Shown: positions 32,292 to 39,813 of the stretch, piece after piece
Layout: each line of letters begins with the position of its first letter
How positions within the stretch are numbered: position 1 is the stretch's first letter
DNA from: Candidatus Uhrbacteria bacterium
Lineage (GTDB): Bacteria > Patescibacteriota > Patescibacteriia > UBA9934 > GWF2-40-263
DNA: 40,375 nucleotides
Assembly: GCA_016235605.1 (NCBI GenBank)
Contig: JACRJW010000078.1
Location: forward strand, 1 to 40,375
Direction of reading: 5' to 3'
The notes under the pieces: generated by a model
Told to the model about the DNA's origin: nothing
The model's input: the letters and a program-made list of their open reading frames with translations, nothing else
Databases searched by the model: none
Program-made: the position numbers and the translations under genes

Positions 32292-32350
32292 GGGGTCAGG
32301 TCGGGCTATGGGCTTTTTTCATAAAATAGCCCGTAGCCCGACCTGACCCC
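32292..32350. repeat. 59-bp REP-like palindrome (GGGGTCAGGTC arms) between convergent genes
   Basis: GGGGTCAGGTCGGGCTATGGGCT ... AGCCCGTAGCCCGACCTGACCCC, 22/23 complementary. Confidence 0.85.
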
Positions 32351-33980: not shown

Positions 33981-34385
33981 TCACTTCACCTTCACCACGC
34001 AACTTGCCAGAATGACATCGGGTTTGAAGCCTTCGATTTTTGCTCCCCTCCCTCTGCTTAAATCGCGCAAGACATTCATCACCTCGCCAGCGATGGCGCC
34101 GGTGCCGTGGCCGTAGATCACGCGGACCATCTTTCCAGGATTCTCACTGAGCAATTTGTCGATGCCAAACGCCACGTCCTCACGATGCATGCCGTGAAAA
34201 TCGACGTTGGGTAAGAGTTTGTCCATCATGGCGATGTTAAGCTGCTGGTCCAAAGTCATCTCCTCGTCCGGCTGGTTTTCACCTTTTTTGGCCGCCAGGC
34301 GTTCTTTTTTTGTTGGGGCGACCCAAGTGTCCAGTTGATCTTTTTTTGGCTGGGCTCCTCGTCCCATTTCTGCGCGTCTGCCCAT
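33981..34385 (-). CDS. Stand-alone Smr-domain protein
   Basis: VDFHGM...VRVIYGHGTGAI, matching the Smr LDLHG...IHGKG pattern. Confidence 0.85.
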   Translation of the reverse strand: MGRRAEMGRGAQPKKDQLDTWVAPTKKERLAAKKGENQPDEEMTLDQQLNIAMMDKLLPNVDFHGMHREDVAFGIDKLLSENPGKMVRVIYGHGTGAIAGEVMNVLRDLSRGRGAKIEGFKPDVILASCVVKVK

Positions 34386-34469
34386 AGGATTGAGCGGATA
34401 ATGTTTTTCAATACAGTGATTATACCAGATCGATTTATGAGCCTCGGTTATGGTAGGCTAGGGGACAGT

Positions 34470-36287
34470 ATGGACCCCAAGGATGAGATTAAACAAAAAA
34501 TTGACATCGTCGAGCTTGTGGGTGAGTACGTCCAGCTCAAGGTGGCTGGGTCTTCGGGACTGAAAGGGCTGTGCCCGTTTCATGGCGAGAAGACGCCGAG
34601 CTTCCATGTCTCGCGCGATCGGCAGATTTGGCATTGCTTTGGATGCGGCGAGGGAGGCGACTGTTTTGCCTTCACGATGAAGATGGACGGGATGTCGTTT
34701 CCCGAGGCGCTTATGCATCTGGGAAAAAAGACCGGCGTGGAAGTCCGACGCCTTCCGACGGTGGAGACGAATGCAAAGTCAAGAATGTATCAGGTGAATG
34801 AACTGGCGCAAAAATTTTTTCGAAAAGTGCTTTTGGATTCTGGGAGCGCGGCATCGGCTCGAGCGTATGTGGAGTCACGGGCTATTCCTCTGGAACTCGC
34901 GGAGCTCTTTGGAATCGGTTTTGCGCCGGACGAATGGGACGCACTGTCTCAATTTCTCCGCAAGCGCGGATTCTCCGAGGTGGAGCTCATCGAGGCAGGA
35001 GTCTCCCTGAAGAAAAAAAGCGGTGTAGGCGTGATCGATCGATTTCGAAATCGGCTGATGATTCCACTGCGTGATCATCATGGGAATACGGTTGGGTTTA
35101 CAGGGCGCTCGCTTCCGACCTACAACCTACAACCTACAACCTTCGATTCGCCTAAATACATGAACTCACCCGAGACGCCGGTGTATCATAAAGGTTCGCT
35201 CGTTTTTGGTCTTGATTTGGCCAAACGCTGCATTCGAGAGAAAGGTTTTGTCGTGATCGTGGAAGGGAATCTCGACGTGGTTGCCTCGCACAAAGCTTAT
35301 GTGGAAAATATCATTGCGAGCTCCGGCACCGCTCTGACACAAGACCAACTGATTCTTCTCAAGCGCTACACCGAGACAGCCGTATTTGCATTTGATGCGG
35401 ACGCGGCGGGATTTGCCGCAGCAAAAAAGGGGATCAGTCTGGCCCGTGGGCTTGGGTTTGATGTGCGTGCGGCGATTCTTCCAGACGGTGTGAAGGATCC
35501 AGACGAGCTGGTGCAGAAAGATCCGACCGCATGGAAAAATCTTGTTGAGAAGTCTGTGCCGATCATGGAATTTTTGATCGCGCACGTCACCAAGGGAAAA
35601 GATTTGCGACAGGTTGATGACAAGCGTGTCGTGGCCAAGGAACTCTTGCCAGCCATTTCTGAAATGTCGTCCGTGGTTGAGCGTGAGCATTGGCTGCAGA
35701 TCGTTGCGGACCTTTTGAGTATCTCGTCTGATCAGTTGCGTTCTTCCTTGCAGCCCAAACCCTCGGAGCCCTTGAAGCCCTCGCAGCCTTCGACGCCCTT
35801 GAAGCCCCTCCCAAAAGACGAACAAGCCCGCCGGCTTCTTTTCGGCTACGCGATTCAGACTTCATCACAGTTTCAAACCATCCTTTCGCGTTTAGAACCT
35901 TTTCTAACTTCCTACAACCTACAACCTACGACCTACGACCTTTCCCTGTGGATAACCCTTTACAAGCTCTCCCGCAGCGCGTATGATCCAAGCAGTCAAG
36001 CAGCTAAAACATCGCATTTTTCAAGGATTCGTACTCTCACGTCCGGTCATCCCCACCAAGAAGCCCTCGAGGCACTTCTTGATACATCACTTTTGATGGC
36101 CGAAGAAACGTTTGGAGACATCCCTGAATCACAGATGCTGCAGCAAATTGAACATCTTTTCTCTCTCTTGAACACGCTGAGTACCAGTCGTGATCGTGAG
36201 GCGTTGGCGCGAGCGTTGCGTCAAGCGGAGCTTGCGGGAGATGAAGAAGAAGTCAAGCGTCTTTTAAGTACCATGCCTCGATTATGA
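34470..36287 (+). CDS. dnaG: DNA primase
   Basis: [15 protein letters not shown] zinc finger, [37 protein letters not shown]. Confidence 0.97.
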
Positions 36288-37525
36288 AGAAGCCGCACAA
36301 GAAAAAAAATCGTTATCACTCGCAAAAAAAGAAAGTGGTAAAGCCACAGCAGAAGAAGAAAATGCAGGCGAAGAAATTTCCTGCGGTCAAAAAATATGTT
36401 CACGTTGCTGAGCCAAAGATCCGTTACAAGCGCGCGGAGCCGCCATCGGAGATCGTGCTTGAGAAACTCGTCGACAAGGGCATGCGCCGCGGGTACATCA
36501 CCGAGAACGAGATTCTTTTTACGTTTACGGATCTCGAGGACTATCTTGATGTCTTTGAGGATTTTTTGGATGAGCTCGAGCGCGTGGGTGTGCACTTTGT
36601 CGAAGTGAAGGAAGGCATCCTTGGTCGCGAGAAAGAACGAGGCGATGTGTACGACAAGATTCGCGTCAGTGAAGACGCACGTCGCACCGTGTTGCCAGAC
36701 ATCACGCAGGACTCCATCCAAATGTACTTGCGCGAGATCGGCAAGATCCCGTTGCTCACAGGAGAAATGGAAGTTGCGCTGGCCAAGCGTAAGGAACGCA
36801 ACGAAAAAGAAGCCGAGCGTCGGCTCATTGAGGCGAACTTGCGCCTCGTCGTTTCAATCGCGAAAAAATTCGTCGGCAAGTCCATGTCGCTCTTGGATTT
36901 GATTCAGGAAGGCAACATCGGTTTGTTCCGCGCCGTGAAAAAATTTGAATATCGTAAAGGCTACAAATTTTCTACCTATGCGACTTGGTGGATTCGCCAA
37001 GCGATCACACGCGCGCTTGCCGACCAGTCTCGCACGATCCGTATTCCAGTGCACATGGTGGAGACGATTAACAAGTTTCAACAAATTGAGCGTCAGCTCA
37101 TCCAAGACTTGGGACGCGAACCGCTCGCCGAGGAAATCGCCGCCGAAATGGGACAACCGATCGAGAAAGTTCGCCACATCCGAAAAATTTCACAAGAAAC
37201 GGTCTCGCTTGAAACGTCCGTGGGAGACGATGACGAAGATTCCAAGCTCGAAGACTTTATCGAGGACGTGAAAACAATCTCGCCAGACCGTACCGCCGCG
37301 CGTGAGCTTCTCAAAGACTACGTGAACAAAGCGATGGAAGGTCTCACTCCGCGTGAGCAGAAGATTCTTGAAATGCGCTTCGGCCTCACCGACGGCGTGA
37401 GTCACACCTTGGAAGAAGTCGGCCGCGAATTCGACGTCACCCGCGAACGTATCCGCCAAATCGAAGCCAAGGCGCTTGAAAAGATCCAAGCCAATCCTTT
37501 GATCGAGAAGTTGAGGGATTACTAA
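36284..37525 (+). CDS. rpoD: Primary sigma factor RpoD/SigA with Lys-rich N-terminal extension
   Basis: [64 protein letters not shown]. Confidence 0.97.
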
Positions 37526-37626
37526 ATGGGGTCAGGTCCGGAATCGGGAATTCGTTGGACACAAAACATTACCCGGTAACGTCGTTTTGGCTGAGCTGAG
37601 CCAAAATAGAAAACCGCCTGTCGCTT

Positions 37627-38058
37627 TTACAGCTTCAGACGGTAGAGGTTGGTGTCGCGAACGGCGAATCCAAGAGAGCGGTAGAGACGGTTCGCAGCCT
37701 CGCGTTCTGGCTCACTGCACAAGTCGATGCGTTCGATGCCGATCTCGCGCGCGTGGGCGATGAGCTGGAGCGTCAACTCTCTGCCGATGCCGCGACCGCG
37801 ATACATCCTGTCAACGACGACGTCCTCGATGTGGCCGCTCACGTGGCTGATCGAGAACATCGCGACCAACAGAGCCGTGCCGACGATATCTCCCTCAAGC
37901 TCGTCATCGCGAGCGACGACGAGCTCGTGGGTCAGAGCCGTCGTGTGGAGATCAGTGAGCGTGAGTTCACGAGGAGCAGAAGAGAGCTGTCGGATCAGCC
38001 GCACGAGTTGCGCGTGATCCTTGATCGTCGGATTGATGAGACGCGAGTACGTGATCAT
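37627..38058 (-). CDS. GNAT family N-acetyltransferase
   Basis: GHIEDVVVD..YRGRGIG acetyl-CoA motif; AANRLYRSLGF; ATGA overlap with the HAD gene. Confidence 0.92.
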   Translation of the reverse strand: MITYSRLINPTIKDHAQLVRLIRQLSSAPRELTLTDLHTTALTHELVVARDDELEGDIVGTALLVAMFSISHVSGHIEDVVVDRMYRGRGIGRELTLQLIAHAREIGIERIDLCSEPEREAANRLYRSLGFAVRDTNLYRLKL

Positions 38059-38702
38059 TTGGCACACTTCTGGTTGATGGAGAGAATCACATCGAGGGCT
38101 TGTGGTAGATCGTTCACGACATGATGTGCGTCGTCAGATCGGCGGATGTCGTCGCTCCGGCGAATTTGGATACGATGGACGTCTGGCGCGATCGTGGCCA
38201 CTTGCTCATGCTCCCGCGCGCTGTCGTCCAAGAAGACCACATGTCCCGATACCGATGCACCACGGAGGATGACAGCCTTTTCGCCCGCCGTTGTGAAGTG
38301 CATCTCACGGAAGAATCCAGCAGGACGATCCAGGCCGTCGATCTTCAACTGCTGGTACGCACGATCGCCGAAGGTGAGGATCGATCGAGTGAGTCCGTGC
38401 TGTTTGAGAGCCTCCAAAAAGGCTGTTGTGTCGCTGTAGTTGATAGCACCCGAACGCACCCTTGCCTGGAAACGTGCACGTAGTTCCTTTGCCCACTTCA
38501 AGTCTGGATCGACGTCCATGGCACGCAGATGTCCCTCGAGCGTGTAGAGGTCACCGCGTTCCCAGATCATCACTCCTTGTGCGTACACGTGATCCGCTTT
38601 CAGATTCAGCCGCTCGGCGAGCTGGTTGATCCAGAGCGTCTGCCACAGTGGAAAGACGTTTACGAGCGTGAGGTCAAGGTCAAGGAAAAGATGGAGGTGC
38701 AT
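38055..38702 (-). CDS. HAD-superfamily hydrolase
   Basis: Motif I FLDLDLTL, motif II LTFG, Lys in GEKA, motif IV FLDDS. Confidence 0.85.
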   Translation of the reverse strand: MHLHLFLDLDLTLVNVFPLWQTLWINQLAERLNLKADHVYAQGVMIWERGDLYTLEGHLRAMDVDPDLKWAKELRARFQARVRSGAINYSDTTAFLEALKQHGLTRSILTFGDRAYQQLKIDGLDRPAGFFREMHFTTAGEKAVILRGASVSGHVVFLDDSAREHEQVATIAPDVHRIQIRRSDDIRRSDDAHHVVNDLPQALDVILSINQKCAK

Positions 38703-39013
38703 CAGTTGATCCTGGTGGCGCGGAAGCGACCCTTGGCCAGTTCGCGGCCGTCGCGTTCGACCGTGAAGCCGCCTTGGATACCATCATCGCCCTGCTCGAT
38801 CACTCCGCGGACGCGGTGCTGTCTGGAACCGCTCGCGAATGGTGCGTCGGAGAATTGTCCATGTGCGTCGGCTTGAGCCTCTCCTTCGCCGTAGTCGCCG
38901 ATGCGGAAACGCGTGCGGCCGTTGCCGAGTTTTTCGATCTCGATGATCGCTTCTTGTTGTTGCCTCCCCGTTGGGGTGACACTGACATGACCACGATAAC
39001 GTTCAGAGGACAT
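38702..39013 (-). CDS. Hypothetical beta-rich protein (103 aa)
   Basis: GGAG SD before ATG 39013; TGATG overlap with the HAD gene. Confidence 0.7.
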   Translation of the reverse strand: MSSERYRGHVSVTPTGRQQQEAIIEIEKLGNGRTRFRIGDYGEGEAQADAHGQFSDAPFASGSRQHRVRGVIEQGDDGIQGGFTVERDGRELAKGRFRATRIN

Positions 39014-39035
39014 GGATGCTCCAGGACGAGGAGGG

Positions 39036-39064
39036 AGACTAGCATGAAGACAAATGGAGTTCAA
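39036..39064 (-). promoter_or_regulatory. Sigma70 promoter of the three-gene cassette
   Basis: Minus strand TTGAAC-17-TAGTCT with TG extension, 2 nt inside the right inverted repeat. Confidence 0.65.
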
Positions 39065-39180
39065 GAAATTCCCGATTCCGGATCTGACCCCGCATCAGCT
39101 GAAGTTGGCGCTTCCAAGCTCCTGCAACGATTTCAGGTGTGCTACGATATACCTGATGCAAGGTCGAACGATTAAAAATT

Positions 39181-39813
39181 ATGGAAAACGAAACGGAGGT
39201 GATAGCCCATGCACAACGTGATCCAGAGGCGTTCGGCCGGTTGTACGATACGTACTACCAGCCGACCTTTGGCTTTCTGTATAGTCGCACGGGCAACGCC
39301 GAGGTGGCGAAGGATTTGGTGAGTGAGACGTTTTTTCAAGCTCTGAAGAATCTGCATCGTTACAAACCGCGCAAGGGCGCCAGTTTCAAATCCTGGCTGT
39401 TCGCGATCGCGGTGGCGCAAATAGGCAACTACTATCGTAGCCGCTCTCGGTACCTCGAAGTCACCACAGACGAAGCGCCAGAGATCATCGGTCGCGAAGA
39501 CTTTCGGCCAGATGTTGCCTACCGCATGGGCGAAGACGCGACAGAGCTCGAGGGAAAGATCGAACTGCTCCGGCGCATGATGGCGAAGTTGAACCAACGA
39601 CAGCAGGATATTTTGACCTTACGATTTTTTTCACACATGAGCGTCCCCGACATTGCCGGTACGCTCTCCATGAAAGAAGGGACGATTAAATCACATATCC
39701 ATCGGGCACTGAAAAAATTACAGGTGCTTATGCTCTCTGAGAGAGAGGGAGCCATGCAGGAGGCGCAACCGCAATCAAAAAAAGAATATGAACCGAGAAC
39801 CGCTCAAAATTGA
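39181..39813 (+). CDS. ECF-type RNA polymerase sigma factor
   Basis: AFGRLYDTY, AKDLVSETF, FKSWLFAIA, region 4 IAGTLSMKEGTIKSHIHRA. Confidence 0.93.
   Translation: MENETEVIAHAQRDPEAFGRLYDTYYQPTFGFLYSRTGNAEVAKDLVSETFFQALKNLHRYKPRKGASFKSWLFAIAVAQIGNYYRSRSRYLEVTTDEAPEIIGREDFRPDVAYRMGEDATELEGKIELLRRMMAKLNQRQQDILTLRFFSHMSVPDIAGTLSMKEGTIKSHIHRALKKLQVLMLSEREGAMQEAQPQSKKEYEPRTAQN

Follow-up and report, generated by a model that had tools for sequence, protein, structure and literature searches.

When a small operon stands between two inverted repeats, is it the cargo of a mobile unit, or do the genes and the repeats have separate histories? The question is raised by the rpoD-ECF (extracytoplasmic function sigma factor) locus of a Candidatus Uhrbacteria bacterium, within the window analysed here, a stretch of 40,375 nucleotides (contig JACRJW010000078.1 of assembly GCA_016235605.1, positions 1 to 40,375). 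The genome under study, called G000 below, comprises 1.2 Mb in 111 contigs, of which C59 holds the window. Two copies of a 25-nt repeat, hereafter arms, lie inverted at 37528-37552 and 39067-39091 with a 24/25 match, and the interval between them contains exactly three minus-strand open reading frames (ORFs), with the flanking rpoD and ECF genes on the other strand. The arms belong to a family of repeats resembling repetitive extragenic palindromic (REP) sequences, and this family is that of a Y1/HUH transposase similar to the REP-associated tyrosine transposases (RAYTs). Judged from the same locus in relatives, the three genes are old residents and not moved cargo. The layout is what selfish DNA of a known kind ordinarily leaves behind, not an undescribed gene-shuttling system.

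The left arm (37528..37552, plus strand) begins 2 nt past the stop codon of rpoD (36284..37525, plus strand), which forms the left border of a hypervariable locus. It is a solo repeat copy made of the outer 11-mer GGGGTCAGGTC and the inner part CGGAATCGGGAATT, and its 25-mer is identical to six other copies in G000. The right arm (39067..39091, minus strand), also solo and of the same subfamily, carries one mismatch (GATC for GGTC) and lies 31 nt upstream of the conserved ECF-sigma promoter block GCAACGAT; this block and the ECF sigma gene (39115..39813, plus strand) form the right border. A repeat search extends the arms to 37528-37560 and 39059-39091 (33 nt, 88% complementary, 1498 nt apart). 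The arm proper measures only about 25 nt, because the eight further nucleotides on the right (GTTCAAGA...) also occur without an adjacent arm in G001, a genome of the same genus, and in G003, the apparent sister of G000; they are ancestral DNA upstream of the first operon gene.

This first gene, a small hypothetical gene called hyp (38702..39013; ORF 38702-39064, likely ATG at 39013), belongs to no known family, with no Pfam or NCBIfam match and only unnamed clusters in the Atlas (0.91). It is followed on the minus strand by a HAD-like hydrolase gene (38055..38702; weak PF00702 match of 18.2 bits against a cut-off of 26.4) and a GNAT acetyltransferase gene (37627..38058; ORF 37627-38067, likely ATG at 38058; PF00583, E 1.9e-17). 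The hyp stop and the HAD start overlap by 1 nt, HAD and GNAT overlap as ATGA, and a -35-like TTGAAC is kept in G001 and G003. No target-site duplication is present at the arm flanks, which read TAAAT immediately before the left arm and GCATC immediately after the right one, and the interval between the arms holds no transposase remnant (best tblastn E 0.21). A preliminary description, made from the sequence alone, had noted an arm 2 nt after the rpoD stop with a 24/25 inverted partner about 1.5 kb away, a single coupled three-gene operon opposite to its neighbours, and no target-site duplication or recombinase. Coordinates, alignment, the overlapping ORFs and the differing flanks bear all of this out, so the arm-operon-arm observation is confirmed. 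Its further claim of a promoter inside the right arm and hairpins inside the left arm found no counterpart in a scan with consensus promoter and terminator patterns.

Comparison with relatives shows that the rpoD-ECF locus was once empty, because ECF directly follows rpoD in six family-level relatives (G005, G007, G010, G014, G015 and G018); within the genus, it is hypervariable. In G001 the order is rpoD, X438, GNAT-HAD-hyp, Y248 and ECF, X438 and Y248 being genes that stand beside the operon at this locus in relatives. The operon products there share 81, 66 and 79% amino acid identity with those of G000, and no arm is found at the G001 locus even when 7 errors in 25 are allowed. The metagenome contigs L072 and L073 have the same layout as G001, again with no arms. 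L071, a metagenome contig from another species, carries X438, a Nudix-like gene, the GNAT-HAD pair (82 and 80% identity), a tight inverted arm pair (doublet) of another subfamily and ECF, and has no hyp. The locus holds only a Nudix-like gene in G002 and unrelated genes in G004. In G003 the locus lies on two contigs. On one, rpoD is followed by a 312-aa ORF, a second copy of the final 21 rpoD codons, a solo arm and the ancestral terminator of rpoD; the other carries X438, hyp (76%), Y248 (78%), a 331-aa ORF, a complete arm-transposase-arm element and ECF.

Positions 37556-39068 of the window align to G001 at 72.7% nucleotide identity over 1544 nt, a stretch bounded on either side by the inner edge of an arm, and where G000 has its arms, G001 has X438 and Y248. 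The divergence of the operon between these two genomes is like that of neighbouring core genes (90% for the rpoD 3' end, 78-82% for the ECF region). The preliminary description had seen captured cargo in a non-autonomous gene-shuttling unit, but G001, L072 and L073 hold the three genes at this very place without arms, which is what it had named as evidence against that idea; the cargo reading fails because of the same-locus, arm-free operon in G001. Searches with the HAD protein or its alignment as query brought up no further arms-plus-cargo unit among the 61 relatives, and the 2 loci in genome_contigs and the 3 in metagenome_contigs are accounted for by the layouts described here. Among the matches listed, inverted arm pairs around other gene sets, which the same description had proposed to look for, enclose the transposase or, in G035, murI. 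A HAD-GNAT pair (49% and 57% identity) in G042, of another genus, lies in a different context and has no arms. No joint that skips or circularises 37528-39091 appears in the assembled contigs of one run (0.95 of words), a result that is uninformative because assembly drops rare variants. Contigs of the same run cross both arms with the cassette in place, and the joints that were listed fall within rpoD and derive from other organisms.

Two further duplications mark this locus. On L032 (603-1640; G003:C4), the 312-aa ORF, which has no known family, lies between the true rpoD end and the exact 21-codon duplicate; duplications of this sort are left by elements that integrate at the 3' end of a gene and carry their own version of that 3' end with them. 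On L033 (1975-2100; G001), X438 has beside it a duplicate of about 33 nt from the 3' end and stop region of GNAT.

The arms are members of a large repeat family. Counts of the outer 11-mer GGGGTCAGGTC reveal strong over-representation against a reversed 11-mer pattern searched in the same genomes: 26 copies versus 0 in G000, and 266 versus 3 over 41 related genomes. A T usually precedes the 11-mer, which is constant throughout an order, and the right arm bears a one-base variant of it; the 25-mer subfamily to which both arms belong has 10 copies in G000. Inward of the 11-mer, all subfamilies carry a tandem 6-7-mer of variable sequence (for example at 37539-37552 and 32303-32317 of the window). 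Versions in G000 include CGGAAT-CGGGAAT, GGGCTA-CGGGCT and TGGCTAT-TGGCTAT, with more in relatives, and no GTAG is conserved across subfamilies. This combination of an invariant outer and a variable inner part suggests a two-part recognition, in which a cleavage site would be joined to a binding site that co-evolves with the transposase.

Copies in G000 occur in four layouts: tight doublets of 56-59 nt, wide inverted pairs (677, 748 and 314 bp), solos, and copies at contig ends. They are mainly extragenic; five lie inside ORFs. There are three distinct tight doublets (C9/C44, C56 4666-4724 and C59 32292-32350). The last, at 32292..32350 of the window, belongs to the GGGCTA(C/T)GGGC subfamily and forms a 59-nt hairpin like those of REPINs (REP doublets that fold into hairpins). 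Two doublets were folded and give near-perfect hairpins, at -31.7 (32292-32350) and -35 kcal/mol (z -12 and -11), whereas arms taken singly do not fold (-2.2 to -2.4 kcal/mol, z -0.9 to +0.4). Several contigs end in arms or doublets (C56:3-27, C95:5006-5030 and C9:76-131, the last identical to C44:11-66). The repeat family therefore breaks the G000 assembly, and an intact transposase copy could be missing from it. A direct repeat of about 110 nt on C34 (10970-11065 and 12050-12145), containing an arm and a conserved hairpin with the core TTCGTATATACGAA, flanks a PP2C-like phosphatase gene.

The enzyme that accompanies these repeats is a Y1 transposase. The 677- and 748-bp pairs (C56 9857-10533 and C111 17800-18547) enclose ORFs with an HUH motif (HYH) and a downstream tyrosine motif, and the arm-enclosed ORF matches the Y1_Tnp family (PF01797, E 2.6e-11); the 314-bp pair on C61 encloses a C-terminal transposase remnant. 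All three G000 copies are broken or truncated, and the assembly contains no intact transposase of the arm family; the arms are therefore probably immobile now. A fourth Y1 gene (C99), tried as a possible partner, was rejected, since it belongs to another subfamily (34% identity) and lacks arms of the matching kind. Relatives have intact transposase genes whose reading frames span about 285-300 aa. Scores of the family's transposases on PF01797 are 44-47 bits (cut-off 23); a relative's frame of 299 aa reaches 46.9 bits, and its best NCBIfam match is REP_Tyr_transpos (NF047646, E 1e-20, 74.1 bits against a cut-off of 80). Around a 299-aa ORF in G003 (L066:287-1186; G003:C3:55700-57700), two tight doublets also take in an extra 137-aa ORF.

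Among the matches listed, 18 transposase genes in 11 relatives lie between convergent 11-mers 902-1022 bp apart. Strong transposase matches (E <= 1e-40) occur in 22 of the 41 related genomes, all of which carry the motif in 1 to 33 copies; of the 19 others, 10 are motif-free and 9 have 1-6 copies. The gene is often multi-copy, with five strong matches each in G012 and G024 and several in G031 and G025. An affinity with the REP/RAYT type follows from the flanking of the transposase, the hairpin doublets and the co-occurrence of motif and transposase. The preliminary description had anticipated this part well: it took the arms for REP/REPIN-like sequences with a Y1 partner of HUH/RAYT type and proposed to look for a transposase bracketed by the same motif, which is found at C56, C111 and the 18 loci in relatives, and tight pairs do fold. 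Integron attC sites and ends of dif/Xer or Tn3 type were dropped as alternatives for the arms, given that the flanked gene is a Y1 transposase and that neither an integrase nor a DDE gene accompanies the arms, with no aimed search for the enzymes of those systems.

The places where the arms sit are themselves informative. Directly behind rpoD, a solo arm is present both in G000 and in G003. The two share an orientation but each has the subtype of its own genome, and the G003 copy, 6 nt past the duplicated rpoD end, separates the stop codon from the terminator hairpin. On the ECF side, distances upstream of the promoter block are 31 nt for the G000 arm, 30 nt for the L071 doublet and 8 nt for the end of a full element in G003; these ECF-side arms are not one inherited insertion, because the junctions differ between the three. 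Between pyrG and a conserved hairpin, seven nucleotides past the stop codon, stand a solo of the CGGAAT subtype in G000 (C54:18538-18564) and a full doublet of the GGGTTATGGGCA subtype in G003 (L082:3128-3188), and neither G001 nor G002 has an arm at this spot. The rpoD, ECF and pyrG sites in relatives indicate that the family reuses sites, with solos and doublets replacing each other. The arms of G000 thus probably occupy recurrent sites that border a resident operon in a hypervariable locus.

How the arms came to abut the operon may involve loss. A terminator hairpin of rpoD, CAGGCC-N4-GGCCTG, is present in G001, G002, G003 and G014 (an outgroup) and missing in G000, where the gap falls exactly inside the left arm; a deletion beside this arm is needed because the ancestral terminator is missing there. 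X438 occurs in G003, G001 and L071, and Y248 in G003 and G001. On five proteins, G003 is nearest to G000 (RpoD 96%, ECF 91%, DnaG 79%, RpoC 97% and PyrG 95%), and the two are sisters in trees of RpoC plus PyrG (1418 aa; FastTree 0.89, ultrafast bootstrap (UFBoot) 76) and of ECF plus anti-sigma (0.995). If G003 is the sister of G000, X438 and Y248 would be ancestral and would have been lost in G000, each loss abutting an arm; we give such losses about an even chance. Under the proposed course of events, the arms occupy sites just after the stop codon and just upstream of the ECF promoter. X438 together with the rpoD terminator, and Y248, would have been deleted next to them in the G000 lineage, through recombination between arm copies or through adjacent deletion by the transposase (cutting and rejoining). 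Inverted pairs about 900-1000 bp apart hold the transposase gene and tight pairs form hairpins; the arms at this locus would be solo copies, and the outcome would only resemble a transposon.

Several observations weigh against a resident operon flanked by solo arms and adjacent losses. The species-tree node that matters most is weak (FastTree 0.89, UFBoot 76). The dnaG+rpoD tree favours G003 with G001 (0.87), adding these two genes flips the joint tree, and on that topology, a gain of X438 and Y248 is as parsimonious as their loss in G000. Outside the right arm, 23 nt match nothing at the relatives' junctions (127 and 422 of 500 shuffles score as well against G001 and G003), and the only remnant there in common with G001 is CAAGCTCCTGC. 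Measured from the promoter block, the positions of the right arm and the G003 arm differ by 23 nt. The operon has a G+C content of 0.55-0.62, somewhat above that of its neighbours (0.47-0.55), and reads inward from one arm, as the transposase gene does in genuine elements. Solo arms that converge at so short a distance are also uncommon under random placement (1-9%), and two such close pairs are rarer, so that there may be some link between paired arms. The conflict itself, in which window positions 34335-37525 (dnaG+rpoD) and unlinked genes give G000 different sisters, hints at recombination around the hypervariable locus.

These placement figures come from a null model in which a convergent solo pair falls within 1.6 kb or three genes. 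Its probability is 5-9% for all 13 solos, a set that includes copies inside genes, 1.5-2.6% for the 7 solos of the cassette's subfamily, and 1-3.5% for an intergenic-only set of 6-8 truly intergenic solos. With the latter, two close pairs, the cassette and the direct pair around the PP2C-like gene on C34, have a probability of 0.2-0.7%. Pairing thus exceeds what the uniform null gives. This null is too simple, because relatives show the same two sites repeatedly occupied. Relatives also provide control pairs. In G035 (L062:1988-2016; C37), an arm lies inside an open murD-like ORF of 394 aa and its inverted partner just past the murI stop, the two being 1459 bp apart and enclosing murI. Inverted pairs therefore arise without being cassettes, as this one encloses murI and ends inside the murD-like ORF. 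A P-loop kinase-like gene in G033 stands between a doublet and a solo that differ in subtype, and G022 and G024 have non-coding intermediates of 343 and 498 bp. Among the matches listed, the convergent pairs above transposase size are only the G035 pair and that of the window.

Against this background, four other explanations can be weighed. A non-autonomous mobile unit of arm, cargo and arm, moved in trans by a RAYT-type Y1 transposase, would account for arms that are the same repeat that brackets the transposase gene and are near-identical to each other and to other copies, for pairing above uniform random placement, and for an operon polarity from the arm as in transposase elements; the missing target-site duplication is expected for HUH enzymes. 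It is nonetheless very unlikely, since G001, L072, L073 and L071 have the cargo at the same locus without bracketing arms, hyp is at the locus in G003 too, the 66-82% amino acid identity of the cargo is typical of vertical divergence here, the relatives and contig collections searched hold no other copy, and G000 has no intact family transposase. The three genes might instead have taken the place of the transposase gene in an earlier arm-transposase-arm element, whose layout is equally inward-facing, and G003 does have a full element beside the ECF promoter. Such a replacement is scarcely credible when no remnant lies between the arms (best E 0.21), homology to G001 fills the whole arm-to-arm interval, and the G003 solo at the rpoD stop is separated from the G003 element by about 7 kb or more of other genes.

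A host function, with arms kept as protein-binding or insulating sequences at gene borders and paired around the operon for regulation, fits the stop-codon and promoter sites occupied in several species, the outer 11-mer invariant across an order and the copies in frame inside conserved genes. We consider it highly improbable, as the operon is arm-free in G001, the number of repeat copies follows the transposase from genome to genome, and single arms have no structure. Two independent insertions of solo arms in the short spacers of an ancestral order of rpoD, operon and ECF, with no deletion in G000 and with X438 and Y248 inserted later in other lineages, are unlikely, and they would leave the main verdict unchanged. 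The grouping of G003 with G001 in the dnaG+rpoD tree makes a gain in their ancestor as parsimonious as a loss in G000. The locus, moreover, does gain genes (the 312-aa ORF with the rpoD-end duplication in G003, the Nudix-like gene in G002 and L071), and a duplicated GNAT 3' segment stands beside X438 in G001. However, G003 comes out nearest to G000 by every identity value and in both the RpoC+PyrG and the ECF+anti-sigma tree, and the loss of the rpoD terminator inside the G000 arm needs a deletion anyway. Beyond resident genes bordered by solo copies, a bolder proposal holds that the arms are working Y1 cut-and-rejoin sites, any two of which define a segment that can be excised, lost or exchanged. 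Though decidedly unlikely, it would mean that the family actively drives gene gain and loss at hypervariable loci in these very small genomes, that the arm-operon-arm layout is an excisable module between events, and that differing subtypes at the same site and arm-abutting deletions are its footprints.

Placed among known systems, the locus has the structural look of mobile insertion cassettes, which are passenger genes between inverted repeats of the insertion sequence (IS) type without a transposase, such as MIC231; the term is reportedly used in papers on Xanthomonas Tn3-like elements and on the Bacillus cereus group. The G000 arms likewise match an autonomous element's repeats and enclose genes without a transposase. 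Joint movement of repeats and passengers, however, is not borne out here, where neither a second copy nor a target-site duplication is found and relatives hold the same passengers at the same site without the repeats (G001, L072 and L073, and in part L071 and G003). IS200/IS605 elements and their transposase-less derivatives, the palindrome-associated transposable elements (PATEs), have dissimilar subterminal hairpins and no terminal inverted repeats. The family described here shares with IS200/IS605 a Y1 HUH transposase (PF01797) and the expectation of no target-site duplication, but each of its ends is a 25-nt inverted arm that does not fold by itself.

The REP/REPIN-RAYT systems of Pseudomonas and E. 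coli (PMC3337134, PMC5581495) resemble this family in having a Y1/HUH gene flanked by an inverted, scattered repeat, hairpin doublets with solo copies beside them, and a repeat abundance that tracks the transposase. These papers regard singlets as decaying remnants and put RAYT genes at roughly 500 bp. REP units, however, are palindromic and often tagged with GTAG or CGTC, whereas the arm is neither palindrome nor GTAG-tagged and is modular, joining the invariant 11-mer to a variable tandem 6-7-mer. RAYTs are single-copy and vertically inherited, while the transposase here is multi-copy, about 285-300 aa long and IS-like rather than domesticated, and it falls just under the cut-off of 80 for the RAYT equivalog NF047646 (74.1 bits). 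The family is therefore best set beside rather than within REP/REPIN-RAYT, because its unit is not palindromic and its transposase is multi-copy. The literature searched gives no description of a RAYT-like repeat system in Patescibacteria; one preprint mentions the KEGG term, for an archaeal locus only.

This example shows that inverted repeats around genes are insufficient for calling a mobile cassette when a family leaves solos at preferred sites. It also documents a RAYT-like system spread through an order of Patescibacteria, with modular non-palindromic arms and multi-copy transposases. If arms do promote adjacent deletions, they would offer one tangible way in which genes are lost from genomes that are known to be reduced. 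Different subtypes at the same sites in sister species and in-frame copies within conserved genes add to the interest of the family.

Such in-frame copies bring to mind the Rickettsia palindromic elements, a dispersed repeat found in frame inside protein genes. The likeness lies in arm copies that read in frame in MutY-like, Tgt-like and murD-like (G035) ORFs; the differences are another sequence family, another host phylum and an associated transposase. In G000, the copy at C71:829-855 lies in the MutY-like ORF and reads WGQVRNREFG, and that at C10:18476-18502 lies in the Tgt-like ORF and reads WGQVGLRAFY. Further in-gene arms near position 3600 of L034 and near 724 of L071 are read as W-G-Q-V in the same frame, and arms in ORFs on C27, C29 and C83 are read from the other strand (..DLTP). 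The arm in the MutY gene occupies the same position in G002 and L071, and here one and the same G-to-T change, found in both inner repeat units, distinguishes G000 from L071.

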